Shown here in pieces: positions 1-9,283 of a stretch of 9,283 bases of DNA. The stretch is from a virus (lineage: Duplodnaviria; Heunggongvirae; Uroviricota; Caudoviricetes). The notes beneath the pieces were generated by a model. That model was given only the letters and a program-made list of their open reading frames with translations. It ran no database searches and was not told where the DNA came from. How positions within the stretch are numbered: position 1 is the first letter of the stretch; each line of letters begins with the position of its first letter. Made by a program: the position numbers and the translations under genes. The stretch covers positions 1 to 9,283 of the IMG/VR virus record IMGVR_UViG_2534681766_000007. The stretch is one strand, 5' to 3'.

Positions 1-1284
1 TTACTTCTTCGCCTCTGCAACCACTTTACTACCCACGCCGCGGTTATTGTATTCCCACATGCGGTTGTAGTTAGTGTCATTCAGATTGCGCTGTATTTCG
101 TCGTTATCATCTACGCTGCCGGTATTACCCGCAAACGGACGATTAGAGATCACCGCATCGGCCCACGGTTTAGCCGTGTTAAAACCTTCGTTGATGGCGC
201 TATCACGGATCACCACCTGACCGTTGGTATTGGCATCAACATCCAGCGAGCGGCCCAGTTGCGCCACACCATCACCGAAAGCATTGAAACGGCTGTTTAC
301 GGCGAGGAAACCGTAGTAAATGTTGGACAGCGTAGCCGGTGCAAACACATACGCTTCTTGCTGAGTACGTGAGTTCACCACGCGGAATTCGGTGTTATCG
401 AACACCACTGCGCCGCGACCAGAAACGATATCCACATCCCCTTCAATGTAGCTGTTGGTCACCAGCGTACGCGGCTGACGATTCGTTTCCAGACGGTTCT
501 GCACACCGCTGTTGGTGACAAAGAAGGTGTTCTGACGACCGAGAATGTTAACGTTGTTAATCTGTACCTGGTCACCATCAGTACGCAGTGCCACCGCCGG
601 ATGGTTACCTGCATCTACGCTATCGCCCAGCGTGTTTTCGATGGTCAGATTTTGCAGTTGCAGGCCATTGTTTTGTGACCAGAAGACCGCAGAGCAGAGA
701 ACACCGATACTGTCGCTGCGTTTGCTCTGGCAGCTATCGTACATATACCACGCTGGTTTACCTGGCATATATTTGCCGCGCGGGTTGACGTCGTGACGCC
801 AGTCGGCAGGGCTCATGCCACCATCAAGGGAAAGCCCAATCTTCACATCAATCGGTTTTTCACCTGTACCGTACAGAGTAATTCCACCCGGAGCGGCAGG
901 GACATATACCGTTCCCTGATACTCACCAGGCATCACGGCAATATACTGGCGCTTGTTGGTACGCTTGATAATTGCCGCATCTACCGCCGCCTGAATCGTG
1001 GTATGCGTTACACCTTGAGTGCCCGCCGGGCCGACAACAAAGTCAGGTTGCGCAGGCAGGGTAATCGGGGAAGGATTCCACGCTGCTGCACCTGGTGTCA
1101 GGGATGCAAAATAGTGTTGAGCATCGAAATTCTGCGCTTCTTTTGCCGACAGAATCGGGCGAGAAGAGGTACCAGGCGCGGTTTGATCAGAAGGACGTTG
1201 ATCGGGCGGGGTTGAGCTACAGGCGGTCAGCGTCACGCCAAAAGCCAATGCCAGCGCCAGACGGGAAACTGAAAATGTGTTCAC
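1..1284 (-). CDS. ybhC: YbhC-like outer-membrane lipoprotein (pectinesterase / acyl-CoA thioesterase family); host gene flanking attB-lambda
   Basis: Complete 427-aa ORF on minus strand; stop TAA at 1-3, GTG start at 1282-1284 with GGAG about 8 nt upstream. N-terminus MNTFSVSRLALALAFGVTLTAC has a signal peptide plus lipobox (LTAC). Sequence recognised as E. coli YbhC from memory. G+C-rich relative to the prophage cargo. Confidence 0.9.
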   Translation of the reverse strand: MNTFSVSRLALALAFGVTLTACSSTPPDQRPSDQTAPGTSSRPILSAKEAQNFDAQHYFASLTPGAAAWNPSPITLPAQPDFVVGPAGTQGVTHTTIQAAVDAAIIKRTNKRQYIAVMPGEYQGTVYVPAAPGGITLYGTGEKPIDVKIGLSLDGGMSPADWRHDVNPRGKYMPGKPAWYMYDSCQSKRSDSIGVLCSAVFWSQNNGLQLQNLTIENTLGDSVDAGNHPAVALRTDGDQVQINNVNILGRQNTFFVTNSGVQNRLETNRQPRTLVTNSYIEGDVDIVSGRGAVVFDNTEFRVVNSRTQQEAYVFAPATLSNIYYGFLAVNSRFNAFGDGVAQLGRSLDVDANTNGQVVIRDSAINEGFNTAKPWADAVISNRPFAGNTGSVDDNDEIQRNLNDTNYNRMWEYNNRGVGSKVVAEAKK

Positions 1285-1330
1285 AGGTTGCTCCGGGCTA
1301 TGAAATAGAAAAATGAATCCGTTGAAGCCT

Positions 1331-1345
1331 GCTTTTTTATACTAA
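1331..1345. other. attL: phage lambda att common core (GCTTTTTTATACTAA) in attL (B-O-P') configuration
   Basis: Exact 15-bp lambda core at 1331-1345. Flanks read CTGCTTTTTTATACTAAGTTG, i.e. bacterial B arm on the ybhC side and phage P' arm on the int side. Core lies 47 bp upstream of the ybhC start. Confidence 0.9.
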
Positions 1346-1418
1346 GTTGGCATTATAAAAAAGCATTGCTTATCAATTTATTGCAACGAACAGGTCACTA
1401 TCAGTCAAAATAAAATCA
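1346..1418. promoter_or_regulatory. attP P' arm: IHF H'-type site and tandem Int arm-type binding sites
   Basis: TATCAATTTATTG at 1371-1383 fits the IHF consensus WATCAANNNNTTR. Tandem arm-type-like repeats AGGTCACTAT (1392-1401) and CAGTCAAAAT (1402-1411), with a third AAATCATTAT-like copy next to the int stop. Arrangement matches the lambda P' arm as I remember it. Confidence 0.7.
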
Positions 1419-2489
1419 TTATTTGATTTCAATTTTGTCCCACTCCCTGCCTCTGTCATCACGATACTGTGATGCCATGGTGTCCGACTTATGCCCGAGA
1501 AGATGTTGAGCAAACTTATCGCTTATCTGCTTCTCATAGAGTCTTGCAGACAAACTGCGCAACTCGTGAAAGGTAGGCGGATCCCCTTCGAAGGAAAGAC
1601 CTGATGCTTTTCGTGCGCGCATAAAATACCTTGATACTGTGCCGGATGAAAGCGGTTCACGACGAGTAGATGCAATTATGGTTTCTCCGCCAAGAATCTC
1701 TTTGCATTTATCAAGTGTTTCCTTCATTGATATCCCGAGAGCATCAACATGCAATGTTGTTGGGATGGCAATTTTTACGCCTGTTTTGCTTTGCTCGACA
1801 TAAAGATATCCATCTACGATATCAGACCACTTCATTTCGCATAAATCACCAACTCGTTGCCCGGTAACAACAGCCAGTTCCATTGCAAGTCTGAGCCAAC
1901 ATGGTGATGATTCTGCTGCTTGATAAATTTTCAGGTATTCGTCAGCCGTAAGTCTTGATCTCCTTACCTCTGATTTTGCTGCGCGAGTGGCAGCGACAGG
2001 GGTTGTTGTTATATGGCCTTCAGCTATTGCCTCTCGGAATGCATCGCTCAGTGTTGATCTGATTAACTTGGCTGACGCCGCCTTGCCCTCGTCTATGTAT
2101 CCATTGAGCATTGCCGCAATTTCTTTTGTGGTGATGTCTTCAAGTGGAGCATCAGGCAGACCCCTCCTTATTGCTTTAATTTTGCTCATGTAATTTATGA
2201 GTGTCTTCTGCTTGATTCCTCTGCTGGCCAGGATTTTTTCGTAGCGATCAAGCCATGAATGTAACGTAACGGAATTATCACTGTTGATTCTCGCTGTCAG
2301 AGGCTTGTGTTTGTGTCCTGAAAATAACTCAATGTTGGCCTGTATGGCTTCAGTGATTGCAATTCGCCTGTCTCTGCCTAATCCAAACTCTTTACCCGTC
2401 CTTGGGTCCCTGTAGCAGTAATATCCATTGTTTCTTATATAAAGGTTAGGGGGTAAATCCCGGCGCTCATGACTTCGCCTTCTTCCCAT
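1419..2489 (-). CDS. int: tyrosine site-specific integrase, phage lambda Int type (356 aa)
   Basis: Full-length ORF starting MGRRRSHERRDLPPNLYIRNNGYYCYRDPRTGKEFGLGRDRR and ending HLLGHKSDTMASQYRDDRGREWDKIEIK; recognised as essentially lambda Int (catalytic C-terminal domain present). ATG at 2487-2489, stop at 1419-1421, 74 bp from the att core as in lambda. Confidence 0.96.
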   Translation of the reverse strand: MGRRRSHERRDLPPNLYIRNNGYYCYRDPRTGKEFGLGRDRRIAITEAIQANIELFSGHKHKPLTARINSDNSVTLHSWLDRYEKILASRGIKQKTLINYMSKIKAIRRGLPDAPLEDITTKEIAAMLNGYIDEGKAASAKLIRSTLSDAFREAIAEGHITTTPVAATRAAKSEVRRSRLTADEYLKIYQAAESSPCWLRLAMELAVVTGQRVGDLCEMKWSDIVDGYLYVEQSKTGVKIAIPTTLHVDALGISMKETLDKCKEILGGETIIASTRREPLSSGTVSRYFMRARKASGLSFEGDPPTFHELRSLSARLYEKQISDKFAQHLLGHKSDTMASQYRDDRGREWDKIEIK

Positions 2490-2685
2490 TTCTGATCCTC
2501 TTCAAAAGGCTACCTGTTACTGGTCGATTTAAGTCAACCTTTACCGCTGATTCGTGGAACAGATACTCTCTTCCATCCTTAACCGGAGGAGGGAATATCC
2601 TGCACTCGCGTACCCATCGACGAACTGTTTCAAGGCTTCTTGGGCGTCGCTGGCGTGCGTTCCACTCCTGAAGTGTCAAGTACAT
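2467..2685 (-). CDS. xis: excisionase Xis (72 aa), lambda type
   Basis: ORF MYLTLQEWNARQRRPRSLETVRRWVRECRIFPPPVKDGREYLFHESAVKVDLNRPVTGSLLKRIRNGKKAKS recognised as lambda Xis. Its 3' end overlaps the int start by 23 bp (2467-2489), the known lambda arrangement. Confidence 0.95.
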   Translation of the reverse strand: MYLTLQEWNARQRRPRSLETVRRWVRECRIFPPPVKDGREYLFHESAVKVDLNRPVTGSLLKRIRNGKKAKS

Positions 2686-2752
2686 CGCAAAGTCTCCGCA
2701 ATTACACGCAAGAAAAAACCGCCATCAGGCGGCTTGGTGTTCTTTCAGTTCT

Positions 2753-2881
2753 TCAATTCGAATATTGGTTACGTCTGCATGTGCTATATGCGCCCACAGC
2801 ATCCAGTGGTCTGATGTTCTCGGCTTCGATAACTCTGTTGAATGGTTCTCCATTCCATTCACCTGTGACTCGGAAGTGCAT
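2753..2881 (-). CDS. hypothetical 42-codon ORF downstream of xis in the leftward operon (uncertain)
   Basis: ATG at 2879-2881 preceded by a strong SD (GGAGATGATAA then ATG on the minus strand); translates MHFRVTGEWNGEPFNRVIEAENIRPLDAVGAYSTCRRNQYSN. The ORF track instead lists an overlapping 82-aa ORF in another frame (2725-2973), so the frame assignment is unresolved. Confidence 0.25.
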   Translation of the reverse strand: MHFRVTGEWNGEPFNRVIEAENIRPLDAVGAYSTCRRNQYSN

Positions 2882-2931
2882 TTATCATCTCCATAAAACA
2901 AAACCCGCCGTAGCGAGTTCAGATAAAAGAA

Positions 2932-2951
2932 ATCCTCGTCAGTGCGAGGAT
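2932..2951 (-). terminator. hairpin (7-bp stem ATCCTCG / CGAGGAT, 6-nt loop) followed on the minus strand by TTCTTTTATCTG; possible intrinsic terminator or RNA structure at the left edge of the substitution cassette
   Basis: Inverted repeat read directly from sequence; T-rich run follows on the minus strand. It lies where similarity to lambda, as I recall it, ends. Confidence 0.3.
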
Positions 2952-3123
2952 GCTGTTCATTGCTGCTATACACTTTTTTGCTCTCAACGTAAGCGGTAGC
3001 CCATTCTGTTGGGTTGGTGCAGTTGCTTTTAGGAAATGCTATTTACCCCTTAAATGTCGGCTGAAAGAGCTAAAATCCATGCAAAAAATTTACGCAATTT
3101 TGTGTATTATTGTGCAGTAAGTA

Positions 3124-3726
3124 ATGAGCTATTTTCTGCGCAAAAAATGGATGGTAAATTTGTCCGGGTCAGGAAAAATTTTATGGGCGCTAAACATGAA
3201 AAAAGATTCGTATCCTTATTTGATTTGCATGACAGTTTCAGGGCTGATCTTTATTTTCCTTTTCTTCTGGTGGCGGGCAGATATCTACAGGGTCACGTTT
3301 CTTAATCAGAGTATATCCCACTATTACATTCTGTTTAGCATGGGAATAGCTTTTCTGTTATCTCTGTTTTGGGTTAAGAAGGGGATAGTAAAACAAAGAG
3401 GCTGGAAGAGTCTGTCAGCATACCTTAAGGTTTATGCAGGGATGTGCATATTTGCTGGATTTTTTCTGATTATACCCCTTACGACACTAACTTATTTTTT
3501 GCCTGGAGAGACATCGTCTTATGTTGCACCGTATCGGTATACTTCCGGTAGTTCAAAAAGTTGTTCTGGAGCTGAGGTGGATGACCCCGATCTACATGAG
3601 AATATTCGCATTTGCTATCCGTATGGCAATTATGAGTACGATAATATTATCTATGTTGAAAAGAAAATTAATATATTAGGTGCGGTAGTGACATATGCAC
3701 AGACCGCGCGTGATGATACTGAATGA
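3124..3726 (+). CDS. hypothetical membrane protein, three predicted TM helices plus ~75-aa Cys-containing C-terminal domain (predicted periplasmic); AT-rich accessory (moron) gene, candidate superinfection-exclusion or defence factor
   Basis: 200-codon ORF on the opposite strand to the surrounding lambda early-left genes. Hydrophobic segments YPYLICMTVSGLIFIFLFFWW, HYYILFSMGIAFLLSLFWV and YLKVYAGMCIFAGFFLIIPLTTLTYFL; the TM2-TM3 loop is K/R-rich (KKGIVKQRGWK), consistent with N-in/C-out topology. Start is ambiguous (ATG 3124 or 3196, both with weak SD). A 60-nt sample (3301-3360) has 20 G+C, versus 26 of 60 in an int sample. No recognisable family. Confidence 0.6.
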   Translation: MSYFLRKKWMVNLSGSGKILWALNMKKDSYPYLICMTVSGLIFIFLFFWWRADIYRVTFLNQSISHYYILFSMGIAFLLSLFWVKKGIVKQRGWKSLSAYLKVYAGMCIFAGFFLIIPLTTLTYFLPGETSSYVAPYRYTSGSSKSCSGAEVDDPDLHENIRICYPYGNYEYDNIIYVEKKINILGAVVTYAQTARDDTE

Positions 3727-3760
3727 TATAGTATATAGCGGGCAAGTTTTAGTTAATTTA

Positions 3761-3784
3761 TCGAGGTAATATAATTTACCTCGA
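3761..3784 (+). terminator. hairpin TCGAGGTAA-TATAAT-TTACCTCGA downstream of the membrane-protein gene; putative terminator
   Basis: Perfect 9-bp inverted repeat with 6-nt loop, 35 bp after the stop at 3724-3726, followed by CTCGTTTGTTCTGG (moderately T-rich). Confidence 0.4.
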
Positions 3785-3936
3785 CTCGTTTGTTCTGGTA
3801 TTAATATTTCGCTTTACGACCGATTTTTATCTGATGATATCATGCGGTTTTCATATACTGACTTACTGTCTTTTCTCCGTTAGCGATTTTCTCCTGCTCA
3901 GCGATGATTTTATCTTTGGCTTCTAGTTAATTTCGC

Positions 3937-4158
3937 TCACTTCGAACCTCTCTGTTTACTGATAAGCTCCAGATCTTGCTGGCAACTGGCACAAGTCCGA
4001 CAACCCTGAACGGCCAGTCGTCTTCGTTCATCTATCGGATCGCCACACTCACAACAATGAGTGGCAGATATAGCCTGGTGGTTCAGGCGGCGCATTTTTA
4101 TTGCTGTGTTGCGCTGTAATTCTTCAATTTCTGATGCTGAATCAATTATGTCTGCCAT
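3937..4158 (-). CDS. TraR/DksA-family C4-type zinc-finger protein (lambda Orf73-like), 73 aa
   Basis: ORF MADIIDSASEIEELQRNTAIKMRRLNHQAISATHCCECGDPIDERRRLAVQGCRTCASCQQDLELISKQRGSK contains the CxxC...CxxC motif of the TraR/DksA zinc-finger family; ATG at 4156-4158. Size and position match the lambda TraR homologue as I recall it. Confidence 0.85.
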   Translation of the reverse strand: MADIIDSASEIEELQRNTAIKMRRLNHQAISATHCCECGDPIDERRRLAVQGCRTCASCQQDLELISKQRGSK

Positions 4159-4204
4159 CTTTCATTAATCCCTGAATTGTTGGTTAATACGCTTGAGGGT
4201 GAAT

Positions 4205-4234
4205 GCGAATAATAAAAAAGGAGCCTGTAGCTCC
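4205..4234 (-). terminator. intrinsic-terminator-like hairpin (GGAGC-loop-GCTCC) followed by a T-tract on the minus strand
   Basis: On the minus strand the sequence reads GGAGCTACAGGCTCC then TTTTTTATTATT; located between the stop of the upstream ORF (4257) and the Orf73 start (4158). Confidence 0.45.
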
Positions 4235-4256
4235 CTGATGATTTTGCTTTTCATGT

Positions 4257-4538
4257 TCACCGTTCCTTAAAGACGCCGTTCAACATGCCGATCGCCAGGC
4301 TTAAATGAGTCGGTGTGAATCCCATCAGCGTTACCGTTTCGCGGTGCTTCTTTAGTACGCTACGGCAAATGTCATCGACGTTTTTATCCGGAAACTGCTG
4401 TCTGGCTTTTTTGATTTCAGAATTAGCCTGACGGGCAATGCTGCGAAGGGCGTTTTCTTGCTGAGGTGTCATTGAACAAGCCCCATGTCGGCAAGCATAA
4501 GCACACAGAATATGAAGCCCGCTGCCAGAAAAATGCAT
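4257..4538 (-). CDS. small early-left protein (lambda orf61-region homologue); start uncertain, alternative start at 4472 gives 71 aa beginning MTPQQENALRSIARQ
   Basis: Open frame in the ORF track (93 aa). The ATG at 4538 lies immediately after an in-frame TGA, so the N-terminus may be an ORF-finder artefact; the ATG at 4470-4472 overlaps the stop of a 27-codon ORF in ATGA configuration. Confidence 0.45.
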   Translation of the reverse strand: MHFSGSGLHILCAYACRHGACSMTPQQENALRSIARQANSEIKKARQQFPDKNVDDICRSVLKKHRETVTLMGFTPTHLSLAIGMLNGVFKER

Positions 4539-4548
4539 TCAGTGGTTG

Positions 4549-4740
4549 TCATACCTGGTCTCTCTCATCTGCTTCTGCTTTCGCCACCATCATTTCCAGC
4601 TTTTGTGAAAGGGATGCGGCTAACGTATGAAATTCTTCGTCTGTTTCTACTGGTATTGGCACAAACCTGACTCCAATTTGAGCGAGGCTATGTGCCATCT
4701 CGATACTCGTTCTTAACTCAACGGGAGATGCTTTGTGCAT
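4549..4740 (-). CDS. small early-left protein (lambda Orf63-like), 63 aa
   Basis: ORF MHKASPVELRTSIEMAHSLAQIGVRFVPIPVETDEEFHTLAASLSQKLEMMVAKAEADERDQV; ATG at 4738-4740 preceded by a good SD (GGGGAG, 4-nt spacer); length and position match lambda orf63. Confidence 0.7.
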   Translation of the reverse strand: MHKASPVELRTSIEMAHSLAQIGVRFVPIPVETDEEFHTLAASLSQKLEMMVAKAEADERDQV

Positions 4741-4868
4741 ACAGCTCCCCGTTTATTATTTATCTCCTCAGCCAGCCGCTGGGCTTTCAGCGGATTTCGG
4801 ATAACAGAAAGGCCGGGAAATCCCCAGCCTCGCTTTGTAACGGAGTAGACGAAAGTGATCGCGCCTAA
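4713..4868 (-). pseudogene. 5'-truncated orf60a-like gene; N-terminal coding sequence lost at a deletion joint
   Basis: C-terminal 52 codons (GAITFVYSVTKRGWGFPGLSVIRNPLKAQRLAEEINNKRGAVCTKHLPLS) match lambda Orf60a as I recall it and overlap orf63 by 28 bp as in lambda. Upstream of about 4868 the frame runs into antisense tail-fibre sequence. Confidence 0.5.
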
Positions 4869-6229
4869 TGGATGAAACGAACAAGAAAGCGCCCTTAAAT
4901 AGTCCTGCACTGACCGGAACGCCAACAACGCCAACTGCGCCAAAAGGTACTAATAATACTCAGATCGCAAGTACGGCTTATGTGATGGCCGCGATTGCCG
5001 CCCTTGTAGACTCGTCGCCTGACGCACTGAATACGCTGAACGAGTTAGCGGCGGCGCTGGGCAACGACCCGAATTTTGCGACCACCATGACTAACGCGCT
5101 TGCGGGTAAGCAACCGAAAGATGCCACCCTGACGGCGCTGGCCGGGCTTGCTACTGCGGCAGACAGGTTTCCGTATTTTACGGGGAATGATGTCGCCAGC
5201 CTGGCAACCCTGACAAAAGTCGGGCGGGATATTCTTGCGAAATCGACCGTTGCTGCCGTTATCGAATACCTCGGTTTACAGGAAACGGTAAATCAGGCTT
5301 CTGGCGCATTACAGAAAAACCAGAACGGCGCAGATATTCCGGGAAAAGATACCTTCACCAAAAACATTGGTGCCTGCCGCGCATATAGCGCATGGCTGAA
5401 TATTGGTGGCGATAGTCAGGTCTGGACAACTGCGCAATTTATTTCGTGGCTGGAGAGTCAGGGGGCATTTAACCATCCTTACTGGATGTGCAAAGGCTCA
5501 TGGGCTTATGCAAATAATAAGGTTATTACAGATACAGGTTGCGGAAATATTTGTCTTGCAGGTGCTGTGGTGGAAGTTATTGGCACTCGCGGCGCAATGA
5601 CCATACGCGTTACTACGCCGAGCACGTCCAGCGGTGGCGGAATTACTAACGCTCAATTCACTTATATTAATCATGGTGATGCTTACGCTCCTGGCTGGCG
5701 ACGAGACTACAACACGAAAAACCAGCAGCCTGCATTTGCTTTAGGGCAAACAGGACGCAGGGTCGCAAATGATAAAGCTGTTGGCTGGAACTGGAATAGC
5801 GGTGTTTATGATGCAGATATCAGTGGTGCATCGACATTAATCCTCCACTTCAATATGAATGCGGGGAGTTGCCCTGCTGTACAGTTCCGCGTGAATTACA
5901 GGAACGGCGGTATTTTTTATCGTTCAGCGCGTGATGGTTATGGCTTTGAAGCTAACTGGTCAGAGTTTTACACCACAACACGCAAACCCTCTGCGGGGGA
6001 TGTTGGTGCATATACGCAGGCAGAATGTAACTCAAGGTTTATTACAGGTATTCGCCTTGGCGGTCTGTCATCTGTTCAGACATGGAAAGGCCCCGGCTGG
6101 TCTGACAGGTCAGGTTATGTCGTTACGGGTTCAGTTAACGGAAACCGTGATGAATTAATTGATACAACTCAGGCAAGGCCAATTCAGTATTGCATTAATG
6201 GGACGTGGTATAACGCGGGGAGTATTTAA
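4868..6229 (+). CDS. side tail-fibre protein, C-terminal portion (5'-truncated at deletion joint): constant region to about 5284 plus variable domain Sv
   Basis: 453-aa ORF containing the conserved Stf stretch KAPLNSPALTGTPT...IASTAYVMAAIAALVDSSPDALNTLNELAAALGNDPNFATTMTNALAGKQPKDATLTALAGLATAADRFPYFTGNDVASLATLTKVGRDILAKSTVAAVIEYLGLQETVN, which normally sits in the C-terminal third of lambdoid side tail fibres. No SD before the in-frame ATG at 4868; the N-terminal part of the gene is absent. Confidence 0.85.
   Translation: MDETNKKAPLNSPALTGTPTTPTAPKGTNNTQIASTAYVMAAIAALVDSSPDALNTLNELAAALGNDPNFATTMTNALAGKQPKDATLTALAGLATAADRFPYFTGNDVASLATLTKVGRDILAKSTVAAVIEYLGLQETVNQASGALQKNQNGADIPGKDTFTKNIGACRAYSAWLNIGGDSQVWTTAQFISWLESQGAFNHPYWMCKGSWAYANNKVITDTGCGNICLAGAVVEVIGTRGAMTIRVTTPSTSSGGGITNAQFTYINHGDAYAPGWRRDYNTKNQQPAFALGQTGRRVANDKAVGWNWNSGVYDADISGASTLILHFNMNAGSCPAVQFRVNYRNGGIFYRSARDGYGFEANWSEFYTTTRKPSAGDVGAYTQAECNSRFITGIRLGGLSSVQTWKGPGWSDRSGYVVTGSVNGNRDELIDTTQARPIQYCINGTWYNAGSI
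5259..5284. repeat. 26-bp Gin/Pin/Hin/Cin-type crossover site, left end of invertible segment (TTATCGAATACCTCGGTTTACAGGAA)
   Basis: Close to the Mu gix site as I recall it (TTATCCAAAACCTCGGTTTACAGGAA). Inner 25 bp (5268-5292, ACCTCGGTTTACAGGAAACGGTAAA) is a perfect inverted repeat of 8304-8328. Lies inside the tail-fibre reading frame at the constant/variable boundary (EYLGLQETVN). Confidence 0.85.
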
Positions 6230-6231
6230 CG

Positions 6232-6765
6232 ATGATGCACTTAAAAAACATTACTGCTGGCAACCCTAAAACAAAAGAGCAATACCAGCTAACAAAGCAA
6301 TTTAACATCAAATGGCTTTATTCAGATGATGGAAAAAACTGGTATGAGGAACAAAAGAATTTCCAGCCAGACACTTTGAAAATGGTCTATGACCATAACG
6401 GCGTTATTATTTGTATTGAAAAGGATGTTTCAGCAATTAATCCAGAGGGTGCAAGCGTCGTTGAATTACCTGATATTACAGCAAATCGCCGGGCTGATAT
6501 TTCGGGGAAATGGATGTTCAAAGATGGCGTAGTGATAAAGCGAACTTATACCGAGGAAGAGCAGAGGCAACAAGCGGAAAATGAAAAGCAAAGCCTGTTG
6601 CAACTTGTCAGGGATAAAACCCAGCTATGGGACTCACAGCTACGGCTGGGCATCATTTCCGACGAGAATAAACAAAAATTAACCGAGTGGATGCTCTATG
6701 CGCAGAAAGTCGAATCTACAGACACTTCTGGCCTGCCAGTAACGTTTCCCGAACAACCAGAATGA
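6232..6765 (+). CDS. tfa: tail-fibre assembly protein (Tfa / U-type chaperone), 177 aa
   Basis: Starts 2 bp after the tail-fibre stop (TAACGATG). N-terminus [24 protein letters not shown] and overall length typical of Tfa; paralogous to the oppositely oriented ORF at 6794-7321. Confidence 0.85.
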   Translation: MMHLKNITAGNPKTKEQYQLTKQFNIKWLYSDDGKNWYEEQKNFQPDTLKMVYDHNGVIICIEKDVSAINPEGASVVELPDITANRRADISGKWMFKDGVVIKRTYTEEEQRQQAENEKQSLLQLVRDKTQLWDSQLRLGIISDENKQKLTEWMLYAQKVESTDTSGLPVTFPEQPE

Positions 6766-6769
6766 GAGA

Positions 6770-6793
6770 AGGCCCGCTATCGGGCCTTAATTT
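6770..6793. terminator. bidirectional intrinsic terminator between convergent tfa genes (AGGCCCG-CTAT-CGGGCCT followed by TAATTTTT)
   Basis: GC-rich 7-bp stem with 4-nt loop and a T-run on the plus strand; sits between the tfa stop (6763-6765) and the tfa' stop (6794-6796). Confidence 0.55.
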
Positions 6794-7321
6794 TTACTCT
6801 GGTTTTTGTGGCCATTCAGGATTTGCCGTATCCACACGGCTGACCAGAACACTGTAGCGTTCCCATGCTTCCAGTCGTGTGCGTTCCTCGTCTGTTGCCA
6901 TATTCAGCCTGACAGCGCGTTCCAGCGGTTGGATGACTGATTCAGCTTCGGAAAGCAATGCGGCCTTTTGTGATTCGGCCTGTTGTTGTTGCTCGTCTGC
7001 CGTATAAATCCGTTTAACCACAGCTCCGTCCCTAAACATCCACTTACCGGAATCATCAGCGCGGCGGTTGGCTGTAATATCTGGAACCTCAACGACGCTA
7101 TAACCTTCAGGGTTAAGCGTGGAGGCATCTTTGGTGATGGCGACAATAATATTATTTGCATCGTAAACAATCTTTATTGTGTCTGGCTGAAAGTTTTTCA
7201 CTTCCTCATACCAGTTTTTTCCGTCTTCGGACCATAACCAGATAACATCAAAATTCTTTGTTAGCTGATATTGTTCTTTTGTTTTTGGTTTTCCAGACTT
7301 AATATTTTTTAAATGCTGCAT
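6794..7321 (-). CDS. tfa: alternate tail-fibre assembly protein (Tfa' / U'), 175 aa
   Basis: N-terminus [24 protein letters not shown] is paralogous to the plus-strand Tfa, with a divergent C-terminal half; start ATG at 7319-7321, 3 bp after the Sv' stop. Confidence 0.85.
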
Positions 7322-7324
7322 AAA

Positions 7325-8323
7325 TTACACCTGTACGACGTTATACCATGTGCCATTGATGTATTTTTGTATTGGTCTGAATACTGCCGGATCATCGCCA
7401 TCAACTGCACCGATAATGCCAAGCCCCGTAATTGCATGACCTGATTTCTCATACATCACGCCTTTTTGCATAGTCTGAACAACACGTGTACCAAGTCGGA
7501 CATCTCTCACATAACGTGGGTCAAAATTACCATAATTGCCGGGAATAACTTGCGCACCGCAAAGCCAGTTGCCATTGTTGTCCATGTACGCCTGACCATC
7601 GGTGCCATTGGCTGTCCTTGAGTTATTAATCATGTAGATGCCAAATTGCTTATTCCCCAGTCCACCAATCATAAATTTGCGATCAGCGTGGTCCTGACGA
7701 AGTAATGCCTGCGCACCATCGGTGGATACCGCATTGCGTCCCAAAATAACATTCTGGTCACGCATATGAATCCACATGCCGGTACTACTGTTAATTGCAA
7801 AACGGTTTGCAAATATATCCCCTGTAACATCAAGACCATGCCCCATGCTTATCCGACCAGTTCTGAGATTAAGCGTAAAGGGGCGTAGTGGCCCTATATC
7901 ACCATTTTCTCCCTCATTCTCTCGTGTAGGGATGATATGCAGGCATTCTTCAGAGCGACGAAAAATAGCACCAAAAGATGAATTAAATATCCTCAGTGCA
8001 TTGACTGTCGATATTTTTACTTCACTGCTGAAAAGGGCTTTAACAAGGACAGACAAAGCATCCCATTTAAGAGTCATCAGGTCTTTTGTTGTGGTGCTCT
8101 GGCGGCTTCTCCATTTGAAATATTCATTGCCGTTGTCGCCTGTTTCAAACCACATGTATGAATCAGTGTCGCTGTCGGCATTATTTTTAAAACCAATCTT
8201 TGCCCAGTCAGTATTTCTAATCCAGGCAAGGATTGAGTCGTTTTCAAAAGTAAGCCCACCGGACAAGGTATCGCCATTCTTTTGCACGGCGTTCCTGGCC
8301 CTGTTTACCGTTTCCTGTAAACC
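7325..8323 (-). CDS. alternate tail-fibre variable C-terminal domain (Sv'); no start of its own, expressed only when inversion joins it to the constant region
   Basis: Reading from the right crossover site on the minus strand gives ...YLGLQETVNRARNAVQKNGDTLSGGLTFENDSILAW..., in frame with the constant-region motif and continuing to a stop at 7325-7327. Ends ...FRPIQKYINGTWYNVVQV, parallel to the Sv ending ...RPIQYCINGTWYNAGSI. Confidence 0.8.
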   Translation of the reverse strand, partial: GLQETVNRARNAVQKNGDTLSGGLTFENDSILAWIRNTDWAKIGFKNNADSDTDSYMWFETGDNGNEYFKWRSRQSTTTKDLMTLKWDALSVLVKALFSSEVKISTVNALRIFNSSFGAIFRRSEECLHIIPTRENEGENGDIGPLRPFTLNLRTGRISMGHGLDVTGDIFANRFAINSSTGMWIHMRDQNVILGRNAVSTDGAQALLRQDHADRKFMIGGLGNKQFGIYMINNSRTANGTDGQAYMDNNGNWLCGAQVIPGNYGNFDPRYVRDVRLGTRVVQTMQKGVMYEKSGHAITGLGIIGAVDGDDPAVFRPIQKYINGTWYNVVQV

Positions 8324-8337
8324 GAGGTTTTAGATAA
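8312..8337. repeat. 26-bp Gin/Pin/Hin/Cin-type crossover site, right end of invertible segment (TTCCTGTAAACCGAGGTTTTAGATAA)
   Basis: One mismatch to the Mu gixL sequence as I recall it (TTCCTGTAAACCGAGGTTTTGGATAA); inverted with respect to the site at 5259-5284. Confidence 0.85.
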
Positions 8338-8391
8338 TGGCGGTTTCTGGCCTGCATGGCATGATTTGTGCTTTTGGACGGGAGATTCAGC

Positions 8392-8625
8392 GTGCTGATT
8401 GGCTATGTAAGGGTATCAACAAATGACCAGAATACAGACCTGCAACGAAACGCTCTTGTTTGTGCAGGATGTGAACAAATATTTGAAGATAAATTAAGCG
8501 GAATAAGGACAGGCCGACCTGGATTAAAACGTGCTTTAAAGCGCCTTCAAAAAGGTGACGCACTGGTTGTCTGGAAACTGGACTGACTGGGTCACTGTAT
8601 GCGGCATCTTGTCGTGCTGGTGGTG
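8392..8625 (+). pseudogene. pin: serine DNA invertase (Pin/Gin/Hin/Cin family) remnant: N-terminal catalytic fragment interrupted by in-frame TGA after codon 64, then 3'-truncated
   Basis: GTG at 8392 with GGAG 7 nt upstream; translation VLIGYVRVSTNDQNTDLQRNALVCAGCEQIFEDKLSGIRTGRPGLKRALKRLQKGDALVVWKLD carries the invertase active-site serine context (VRVSTNDQ). TGA at 8584-8586 where family members have an Arg codon (DRLGRS), a few more invertase-like codons (MRHLVVLV), then unrelated sequence. The helix-turn-helix DNA-binding C-terminus is absent. Confidence 0.85.
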
Positions 8626-8718
8626 GAAGCCTGGAAAAAGTATCGGGGGTTGCTGAACCGTGTTGATACATCAACTGCACCGGATATTGAATGGCCAACA
8701 GGACCCATTATCGAATAG
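8626..8718 (+). pseudogene. 3'-terminal fragment of a tail-fibre assembly (tfa) gene fused in frame to the pin remnant
   Basis: Translation [30 protein letters not shown] then stop (TAG 8716-8718). This matches the Tfa C-terminal pattern seen in both tfa genes of this window (...[26 protein letters not shown] and ...LTEWMLYAQKVESTDTSGLPVTFPEQPE) and the lambda Tfa C-terminus as I recall it. Confidence 0.6.
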
Positions 8719-8729
8719 TGCATTACGAA

Positions 8730-8762
8730 CTGCAGGATATTATATGGGATAATATTCTGCAG
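8730..8762. terminator. 13-bp stem hairpin (CTGCAGGATATTA / TAATATTCTGCAG, one G-U pair) followed by TTTATT; putative bidirectional terminator between the convergent pin/tfa remnant and the GGDEF gene
   Basis: Inverted repeat read directly from sequence at 8730-8742 and 8750-8762 with a 7-nt loop; 30 bp upstream of the GGDEF gene stop (8792-8794) on the opposite strand. Confidence 0.4.
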
Positions 8763-8791
8763 TTTATTGGGGCTGTATTTTAAAAAGGTGT

Positions 8792-9283
8792 TTATTTTGA
8801 GTGAGTTATCACCTTGTTTTTTCCGGTTCTTTTGGCTTGATATAACGCTTTATCGGCATTGACTAACATTTCAGATGGACTGAGATTATTCTCTTTTGAA
8901 GTAAAGCAACCAATACTGACAGTTATTTTCTCAGGTCCATGCGATAATAATTTTTCCGAGCATTGCTCTTCAATGTTTTTTCTGATTCGCTCTGCAATTG
9001 ATAGCAAGAGCTTTTGAGTATTACCTTTAATGATAATACCGAACTCCTCACCGCCTAAGCGCCCTAATATATCCTCTTTCCTGATGGATTTTTTTATTAT
9101 TCTGGTAACCATTACTATGACTTGATCACCCATATGATGCCCCCATTTGTCATTGATGCTTTTGAAATTGTCAATATCTAACATTATTACTGAGAAATCA
9201 TGGTGTTTTGATATATTCTTCAATGAGTCAATAAAGTATCTTCTATTGTATGTATTCGTTAGTGGATCATGAATTGCCATATG
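8792..9283 (-). CDS. GGDEF-domain diguanylate cyclase, C-terminal catalytic domain (5' end of gene lies beyond the window)
   Basis: Frame contains the GGDEF-domain start motif DPLTNTYNRRYF, the active-site motif GGEEF (LGRLGGEEFGIII) and an RxxD I-site (RKED) five residues upstream of it. The frame is open to the window edge, so the listed Met is probably internal. AT-rich: 20 G+C in the 60 nt 8881-8940. Confidence 0.8.
   Translation of the reverse strand, partial: HMAIHDPLTNTYNRRYFIDSLKNISKHHDFSVIMLDIDNFKSINDKWGHHMGDQVIVMVTRIIKKSIRKEDILGRLGGEEFGIIIKGNTQKLLLSIAERIRKNIEEQCSEKLLSHGPEKITVSIGCFTSKENNLSPSEMLVNADKALYQAKRTGKNKVITHSK

Follow-up and report, generated by a model that had tools for sequence, protein, structure and literature searches.

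The 9,283-nucleotide (nt) stretch of IMG/VR record IMGVR_UViG_2534681766_000007 (called the window in the following) is very likely the remnant, 9.4 kb in full, of a lambda-like prophage that carries the diguanylate cyclase gene dgcX and sits at the lambda attachment site attB-lambda of Escherichia coli. One internal deletion, which joins the early-left gene orf60a to the middle of the side-tail-fibre gene stf, accounts for its layout. A preliminary description, made from the sequence alone, had proposed such a deletion, with the joint somewhere in 4862-4875 and the minus-strand early-left sequence ending at about 4868. Base-level alignments place the breakpoint inside this interval, at 4866-4867, with lambda homology stopping at 4867.

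The two arms of the joint were compared with 50,697 phage records (megablast) and 5,426 complete E. coli genomes. Among the phage records, lambdoid early-left homology covers window positions 4200-4867 with up to 99.3% identity, and matches to the right arm, which start at 4866, come from separate records; no phage record spans both arms. Very many of the complete genomes match window 1-4867 and then diverge. Tail-fibre homology sets in at base 4866, with 100% identity in dozens of these genomes, and a 401-nt query centred on the joint never reached a coverage of at least 80%. That is, early-left genes directly abutting stf, an arrangement that would speak against a deletion if it occurred in an intact phage, are found in none of the phage records and in none of the complete genomes. 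When aligned to the lambda reference, window 3925-4867 corresponds to lambda 30380-31323 (97.0% identity) and window 4866-5274 to lambda 20809-21216 inside stf (77.5% identity), i.e., the lambda coordinates of the breakpoint are 31323 (left) and 20809 (right).

The joint was resolved in three-way base alignments of the window with a left parent, 2018-11-3CC (L003), and the right parents ET76 (L006) and 13C1065T (L001), as well as in a second alignment with strain C2 as single proxy parent. At the breakpoint (marked by a slash), the left parent reads ...GATCGTGCCTA/CGCGGATATT and the right parent ...AAGGCGGTA/ATGGATGAAACG. The window reads ...GATCGCGCCTAATGGATGAAACG across the joint, and its overlap with both parents is restricted to the dinucleotide TA at 4866-4867, i.e., to a microhomology of 2 base pairs (bp). 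No insertion sequence (IS) element and no sequence resembling an att core or a crossover site was found at either parental breakpoint, such that a site-specific origin of the deletion was rejected.

Whether one deletion suffices can be assessed from full-length relatives at the same site. C2 (NZ_CP010117.1; L020) carries a near-complete prophage of 47,380 bp (att core to att core) between ybhC and ybhB/bioA, which holds both arms of the window. Its gene order starts with int, xis, a 200-amino-acid (aa) open reading frame (ORF) shared with the window, orf73, the orf61-position gene, orf63 and a full 60-aa orf60a. It continues with exo, bet, gam, kil, the immunity genes, O, P, the nin region, Q, a porin moron and the lysis genes, and ends with terminase, head/tail genes, J, lom, a 945-aa stf and the same tfa/tfa'/Sv' cassette, 64-aa recombinase stub, tfa fragment and cyclase gene as in the window. 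The window is collinear with this prophage: positions 1-4867 and 4866-9283 correspond to C2 49461-44584 (99.10% identity) and 6649-2232 (99.80%), with a single gap of 37,936 bp between them. Removing the respective part of C2 (L020 6648-44583) predicts an element of 9,444 bp, compared to 9,433 bp observed core to core in a second assembly of the element (att cores at 2464 and 11897 of L011, see below); the difference is one 11-nt indel visible in the arm alignment. A further full-length prophage, that of 2018-11-3CC, has the same left arm (99.55%) with orf60a adjoining exo, and ET76 and 13C1065T have the right arm together with further upstream stf sequence. A single internal deletion from orf60a to stf, as suggested in the preliminary description, is thus sufficient and agrees with the arrangement of the strands as well as with the genes found in these relatives. 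The joint itself, its two parents and this sufficiency follow directly from the comparisons.

Both genes that meet at the joint are truncated and not natural neighbours, as the preliminary description had read them. The Pfam match of the orf60a remnant to DUF1317 covers profile positions 10-59 of 60, and BLASTP aligns the remnant to residues 10-60 of lambda orf60a, i.e., orf60a is not full length. Since lambda orf60a is annotated as complement(31169..31351) in the lambda record and the left arm ends at lambda 31323, 28 nt of its 5' end are gone. Mechanically called ORFs lengthen the remnant to 4910 or 4943 by running through stf antisense; the exact 76-aa fused DUF1317 ORF was not on record in a search of public collections, and its 65-aa version is recorded in the source contig only. 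For stf, the alignment with C2 identifies the ATG at 4868 as internal codon 493 of the 945-codon gene (motif KAVKAV/MDETNKKAPL), and the resulting plus-strand ORF of 453 codons (4868-6229) enters tail-fibre PHROG profiles internally, e.g., at 358-767 of 1376. No promoter-like site was found on the plus strand within 650 nt upstream of 4868, in a scan whose overall hits were at chance level, and no Shine-Dalgarno-like sequence is seen before this ATG when reading the sequence, which agrees with the preliminary description. As the start of stf is deleted together with pL and the late promoter region, and no promoter-like or Shine-Dalgarno-like sequence was found upstream, the 453-aa 'hypothetical protein' and the chimeric 65-/76-aa DUF1317 ORFs are best treated as pseudogene fragments. 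The truncated stf' and orf60a' are probably not meaningfully expressed.

The joint is a rare, lineage-private allele and no assembly artefact. Two independent draft assemblies contain it. The NCBI draft contig APXD01000032.1 (GCA_000356325.2; L013) agrees with the window at 100% identity, and GCA_049988725.1 (L011, a 319-kb contig) has the same joint with 99.97% identity and continues through the full dgcX, attR, ybhB and bioA. Beyond the two collections from above, neither the exact nor the degenerate joint sequence was found in one-genome-per-species contigs or in Joint Genome Institute (JGI) metagenome contigs. A chimera of the draft genome might be suspected, given that the window belongs to a draft contig of 33.6 kb whose end lies within dgcX and that the joint is missing from all complete genomes searched. 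Such an error would have to recur identically within the 319-kb contig of the independent assembly. The source contig is furthermore recorded for three samples, with four further places showing the same neighbouring genes, and the joint is not flanked by a repeat boundary or an IS element on either side. We thus consider a chimera practically out of the question.

For the origin of the remnant, we propose one illegitimate recombination event at the 2-bp TA microhomology, which would have brought nt 29 of orf60a next to codon 493 of stf. About 37.9 kb would have been lost thereby. This loss would comprise exo, bet, gam and kil, the immunity region including pL and pR, the genes of replication, nin and Q, the lysis genes and cos, and furthermore every head and tail-shaft gene together with J, lom and the 5' half of stf. 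The survivors would be attL, int, xis, the exo-xis genes (without pL) and the 3' half of stf, which has neither promoter nor start, followed at the right end by the cis part of the tail-fibre inversion cassette (P2-like in origin), the dead stub of pin, and finally dgcX with attR. The molecular route could be replication slippage or end joining, both RecA-independent. Since the deletion removes pL, the surviving exo-xis genes are left without their native promoter. As the immunity, replication and lysis genes are gone along with cos and every virion gene, the remnant is presumably no longer inducible, replicable or packageable. With int, xis, attL and attR intact, excision is conceivable, and the remnant may thus still excise. 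The loss of lethal functions with dgcX kept was probably neutral or favoured.

Some observations weigh against this reading or limit what it can say. By our own calculation, an overlap of at least 2 bp is expected at about 16% of random joints. The microhomology is therefore within chance; TA means 'illegitimate recombination' and nothing more specific, and it does not identify the mechanism. The direct ancestor is unavailable and C2 only a proxy, and since its left arm is 99.1% identical compared to 99.55% in 2018-11-3CC, the real parent is a slightly different mosaic. Moreover, two or more successive nested deletions, e.g., an earlier IS-mediated or internal deletion whose scar was removed by a second one, would leave the same final joint. 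Stepwise loss is common in this prophage family, in which many independent partial decays are found: 13C1065T has an IS1 beside xis and a cos-to-stf deletion, ET76 an IS1 in int, and BKQ37E a loss from gam to stf. For the window, however, nothing remains between the arms, one event explains the length to within the 11-nt indel, and none of the complete genomes holds an intermediate with the left or right endpoint of the window. We thus regard a nested series as improbable.

A different origin of the right arm, i.e., an illegitimate exchange with a separate P2-like prophage that carries gene H and an invertible cassette, would explain why the sequence equivalent to window 4786-8582 matches the P2-like prophage of strain 1442 with 95.6% identity. 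This module is, however, already part of the lambda-like stf in the prophages of C2, ET76 and PEC1003, where it begins 80 nt ahead of the deletion joint and is succeeded by the same right end (pin'/tfa'/dgcX/attR). With C2, the right arm shares 99.8% identity, compared to only 95.6% with the P2-like copy, and the chromosomal flanks in L011 are in normal order, which renders an exchange between prophages very improbable. Even less can be said for a small mobile element that is functional and natively arranged in this way, i.e., a phage satellite or minimal integrative element. Intact int, xis, attL and attR together with the retained dgcX cargo are what such an element would show, but the ORF list as well as the Pfam and PHROG scans revealed no replication, regulatory, packaging or cos module. 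The equipment of a satellite of the phage-inducible chromosomal island (PICI) type, which besides int has its own regulator, replication and packaging/cos functions, was therefore not found. In addition, both genes at the joint are truncated, a single gap is all that interrupts the collinearity of the window with full-length prophages, and exo is followed by orf60a in the canonical order in 10 of 10 sampled orf63 contexts. These contexts, each with a full 60-aa orf60a beside exo, mark the joint as abnormal and say nothing on hotspots. A deletion within one prophage hence remains our preferred explanation. The features of the window are compiled in Table 1.

Table 1. Features of the 9,283-nt window with coordinates, strand and supporting observations.
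Feature	Position	Strand	Remarks
ybhC, chromosomal gene flanking attB-lambda on the gal side	1..1284	-	427-aa ORF; annotated as ybhC in all relatives
attL core GCTTTTTTATACTAA	1331..1345	+	exact lambda att core; lambda homology begins here
int, intact, 356 aa	1419..2489	-	about 352/356 residues identical to lambda Int
xis, intact, 72 aa	2467..2685	-	about 71/72 residues identical to lambda Xis
orf73-type TraR/DksA zinc-finger gene, exo-xis region	3937..4158	-	Pfam zf-dskA_traR; phrog_54
orf61-position gene	4257..4538	-	phrog_303; within stretch collinear with lambda orf61 region
orf63 (DUF1382), intact	4549..4740	-	Pfam DUF1382 positions 1-60 of 60
orf60a (DUF1317) remnant	4713..4867	-	codons ~10-60 and stop; first 28 nt deleted; Pfam, BLASTP, C2 alignment
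Deletion joint	4866..4867		TA dinucleotide common to both parents; crossover between 4865/4866 and 4867/4868
stf 3' part (side-tail-fibre)	4868..6229	+	codons 493-945; without native start, Shine-Dalgarno sequence and promoter
Left crossover site of invertible segment	5255..5292		38-nt inverted repeat, 92% complementary to 8304-8341; resembles Pin/Gin-type site
tfa, tail-fibre assembly, current orientation	6232..6765	+	Pfam Caudo_TAP
tfa', alternative tail-fibre assembly	6794..7321	-	Pfam Caudo_TAP
Sv', alternative tail-fibre C-terminal segment	7325..8287	-	Pfam Gp34_trimer; PHROG tail-fibre families
Right crossover site of invertible segment	8304..8341		inverted-repeat partner; segment edge in PEC1003
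pin' remnant	8392..8586	+	64 codons of ~195-codon serine invertase; Pfam Resolvase positions 2-73 of 145
tfa 3' fragment, lambda-type	8621..8718	+	after 38 nt (8583-8620) without assignment; partial tfa in annotation of relatives
dgcX 3' part (MASE4-GGDEF diguanylate cyclase)	8792..9283	-	162-aa ORF running off the window

The left arm follows lambda from the att core on (window 1331-2951 corresponds to lambda 27724-29355). The exo-xis region of lambda comprises orf60a, orf63, orf61, orf73 and ea22 (PMC6213356, PMC3824215, PMC9239242), and the window holds orf73, the orf61-position gene, orf63 and orf60a in lambda order with 97% nucleotide identity. It differs from lambda in that orf60a lacks codons 1-9 and that pL, which drives these genes in lambda, is deleted. 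Furthermore, ea8.5 and ea22 are exchanged: non-lambda DNA at window 2952-3924 takes the place of this lambda region and contains a plus-strand ORF (3124-3726) for a 200-aa protein, of which the C-terminal 88 residues match phrog_1416 without any Pfam hit. This ORF is conserved in the prophages of C2, 2018-11-3CC and NCTC11023. The orf61-position gene encodes 71 aa according to the annotation of the source contig compared to 93 aa for the mechanically called ORF.

At the right end, the source contig stops one base past the window, inside dgcX. In L011, dgcX is a full-length MASE4+GGDEF gene of 443 aa (9925-11256), as it is in relatives, and the P arm with the att core matches lambda 27471-27742, followed by ybhB and bioA. 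The element thus lies between ybhC and ybhB/bioA and is bounded by duplicated lambda att cores; Int, Xis and both att sites are intact. The preliminary description had listed the integration module, a few early-left genes and the tail-fibre switch as all that was kept. These are indeed present, but dgcX and attR were retained as well, and of the switch only the cis part is left, with pin cut to 64 codons and no working invertase. Since dgcX lies between tfa and attP-int in SZQ1 (L023), a 43-kb circular phage-like record in which the gene is truncated, dgcX is phage-borne. We observe that dgcX is kept at least partly in all decay variants examined; it is intact in most and truncated by IS1 in NCTC11023.

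Tail-fibre inversion switches of the Din family are known from Mu (Gin/G segment), P1 (Cin/C segment) and e14 (Pin/P segment). The cassette of the window has their layout, i.e., inverted crossover sites of which one lies inside the fibre gene, and two C-terminal exons each with its own tail-fibre assembly gene (two Caudo_TAP genes). Lambda stf homology ends at window 5274. In-silico inversion joins Sv' in frame to the constant stf part such that the reading frame stays open in both orientations, and both orientations occur in nature for this type of cassette: the flipped junction is matched with 100% identity by at least 13 complete genomes. What differs from the Din-family switches is the invertase. 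A full-length adjacent serine invertase with catalytic and C-terminal DNA-binding domain was not found in the window; the resolvase-family stub ORF has 64-72 codons depending on the start (8368/8392-8586), its Pfam match is limited to Resolvase 2-73/145, and homology to the intact 195-aa recombinase gene stops at 8582. With a 64-codon invertase and a fibre gene that lacks its 5' half, the switch of the window cannot change any virion.

The truncation of pin belongs to a second, older joint (window 8368-8720), in which pin is cut after about codon 64 and followed by 38 nt and the 3' end of tfa. Here, window 8621-8696 corresponds to lambda 22460-22535 (tfa 3' end, 93%), and tfa of 2018-11-3CC matches from 8621 on. 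The older joint is present in every relative examined, including the full-length C2 prophage. PEC1003 (L019 7232-10318) carries the segment 5255-8341 in opposite orientation together with the same truncated pin'/tfa' joint. The inversion there would thus postdate the loss of pin, presumably catalyzed by an invertase supplied in trans from another prophage. The orphan cassette may still be flipped in trans. The source of the cassette is indicated by the P2-like myovirus prophage of strain 1442 (L018), which is 95.6% identical over the equivalent of window 4786-8582 (C-terminal half of stf, both tfa genes, alternative fibre end and pin). There, baseplate genes precede the module and an invertase gene of full length (195 aa) follows it. 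Judged from these alignments, the C-terminal half of stf and the cassette are of P2-like origin and the lambda-like stf is a lambda/P2 mosaic, with the left boundary of the P2-like module 80 nt upstream of the deletion joint.

Three independent deletions have their left ends within 70 bp inside orf60a, namely those of the window (crossover at L003 43684/43685), of the 027_SK3 group (within L003 43678-43684, joined to rrrD with 7-bp microhomology, L005 9155-9161) and of NCTC11023 (L003 43748, L002 6311). The three endpoints bracket a terminator-like hairpin at window 4809-4831, which we take to be lambda tL3. The lambda RefSeq record annotates a misc_recomb at 31266^31267, inside orf60a; the literature yielded nothing usable on the meaning of this entry or on the coordinates of tL3. 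Folding the 5' region of orf60a as single-stranded DNA gave a z-score of -0.03, i.e., no exceptional structure beyond one hairpin. ET220 and SZQ1, found with a BKQ37E query, were rejected as extra deletion alleles, the former for a tandem or permuted arrangement and the latter as the circular phage-like record mentioned above. In ET220 (L022 1-5000), stf-tfa-dgcX is directly followed by int-xis-...-exo-bet-gam-kil-cIII, which points to lambdoid prophages in tandem, or to a permuted order, at the site in this strain. A role of the 5' part of orf60a as recurrent breakpoint for prophage-killing deletions is rather doubtful. If it were true, a local fragile site would direct the decay of dgcX prophages, or else this decay would be directed by selection for retaining the exo-xis genes together with dgcX and for losing everything from exo rightwards.

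The window is a defective lambdoid prophage of a familiar kind and reflects ordinary prophage decay, with a specific joint that was not previously described. Among the cryptic lambdoid prophages of K-12, e14, Rac and Qin carry a Pin-type invertase region, of which Pin of e14 is active. The window resembles these prophages (Rac, Qin, DLP12, e14) as a deletion-made defective prophage with an integrase end and stf/tfa fragments. It differs in its attachment site, in its truncated pin and in that living relatives allow an almost exact reconstruction of its parent. Closest are the prophages and remnants associated with dgcX. According to Richter et al. 2014 (PMC4287979), DgcX sits at attB-lambda directly beside lambdoid prophage DNA or its remains; the prophages are of variable completeness, for E24377A with the wording 'what has remained of these'. 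The window shares the site and the MASE4-GGDEF gene beside attR, and its left arm was also found by our genome search in H10407, which is named in the same study. Compared to these remnants, its allele is reduced much further (to 9.4 kb) and has a private orf60a-to-stf joint, which none of the complete genomes searched contains.

No new mechanism or open question hinges on the joint. Its value is in part one of annotation, as the 453-aa and the 65-/76-aa DUF1317 ORFs are truncation or fusion artefacts and not genes, and the element should be labelled as a defective prophage in which the biofilm-related cyclase gene dgcX is still present. Beyond that, it provides a clean, base-resolved example of a prophage reduced to its cargo and its integration module.

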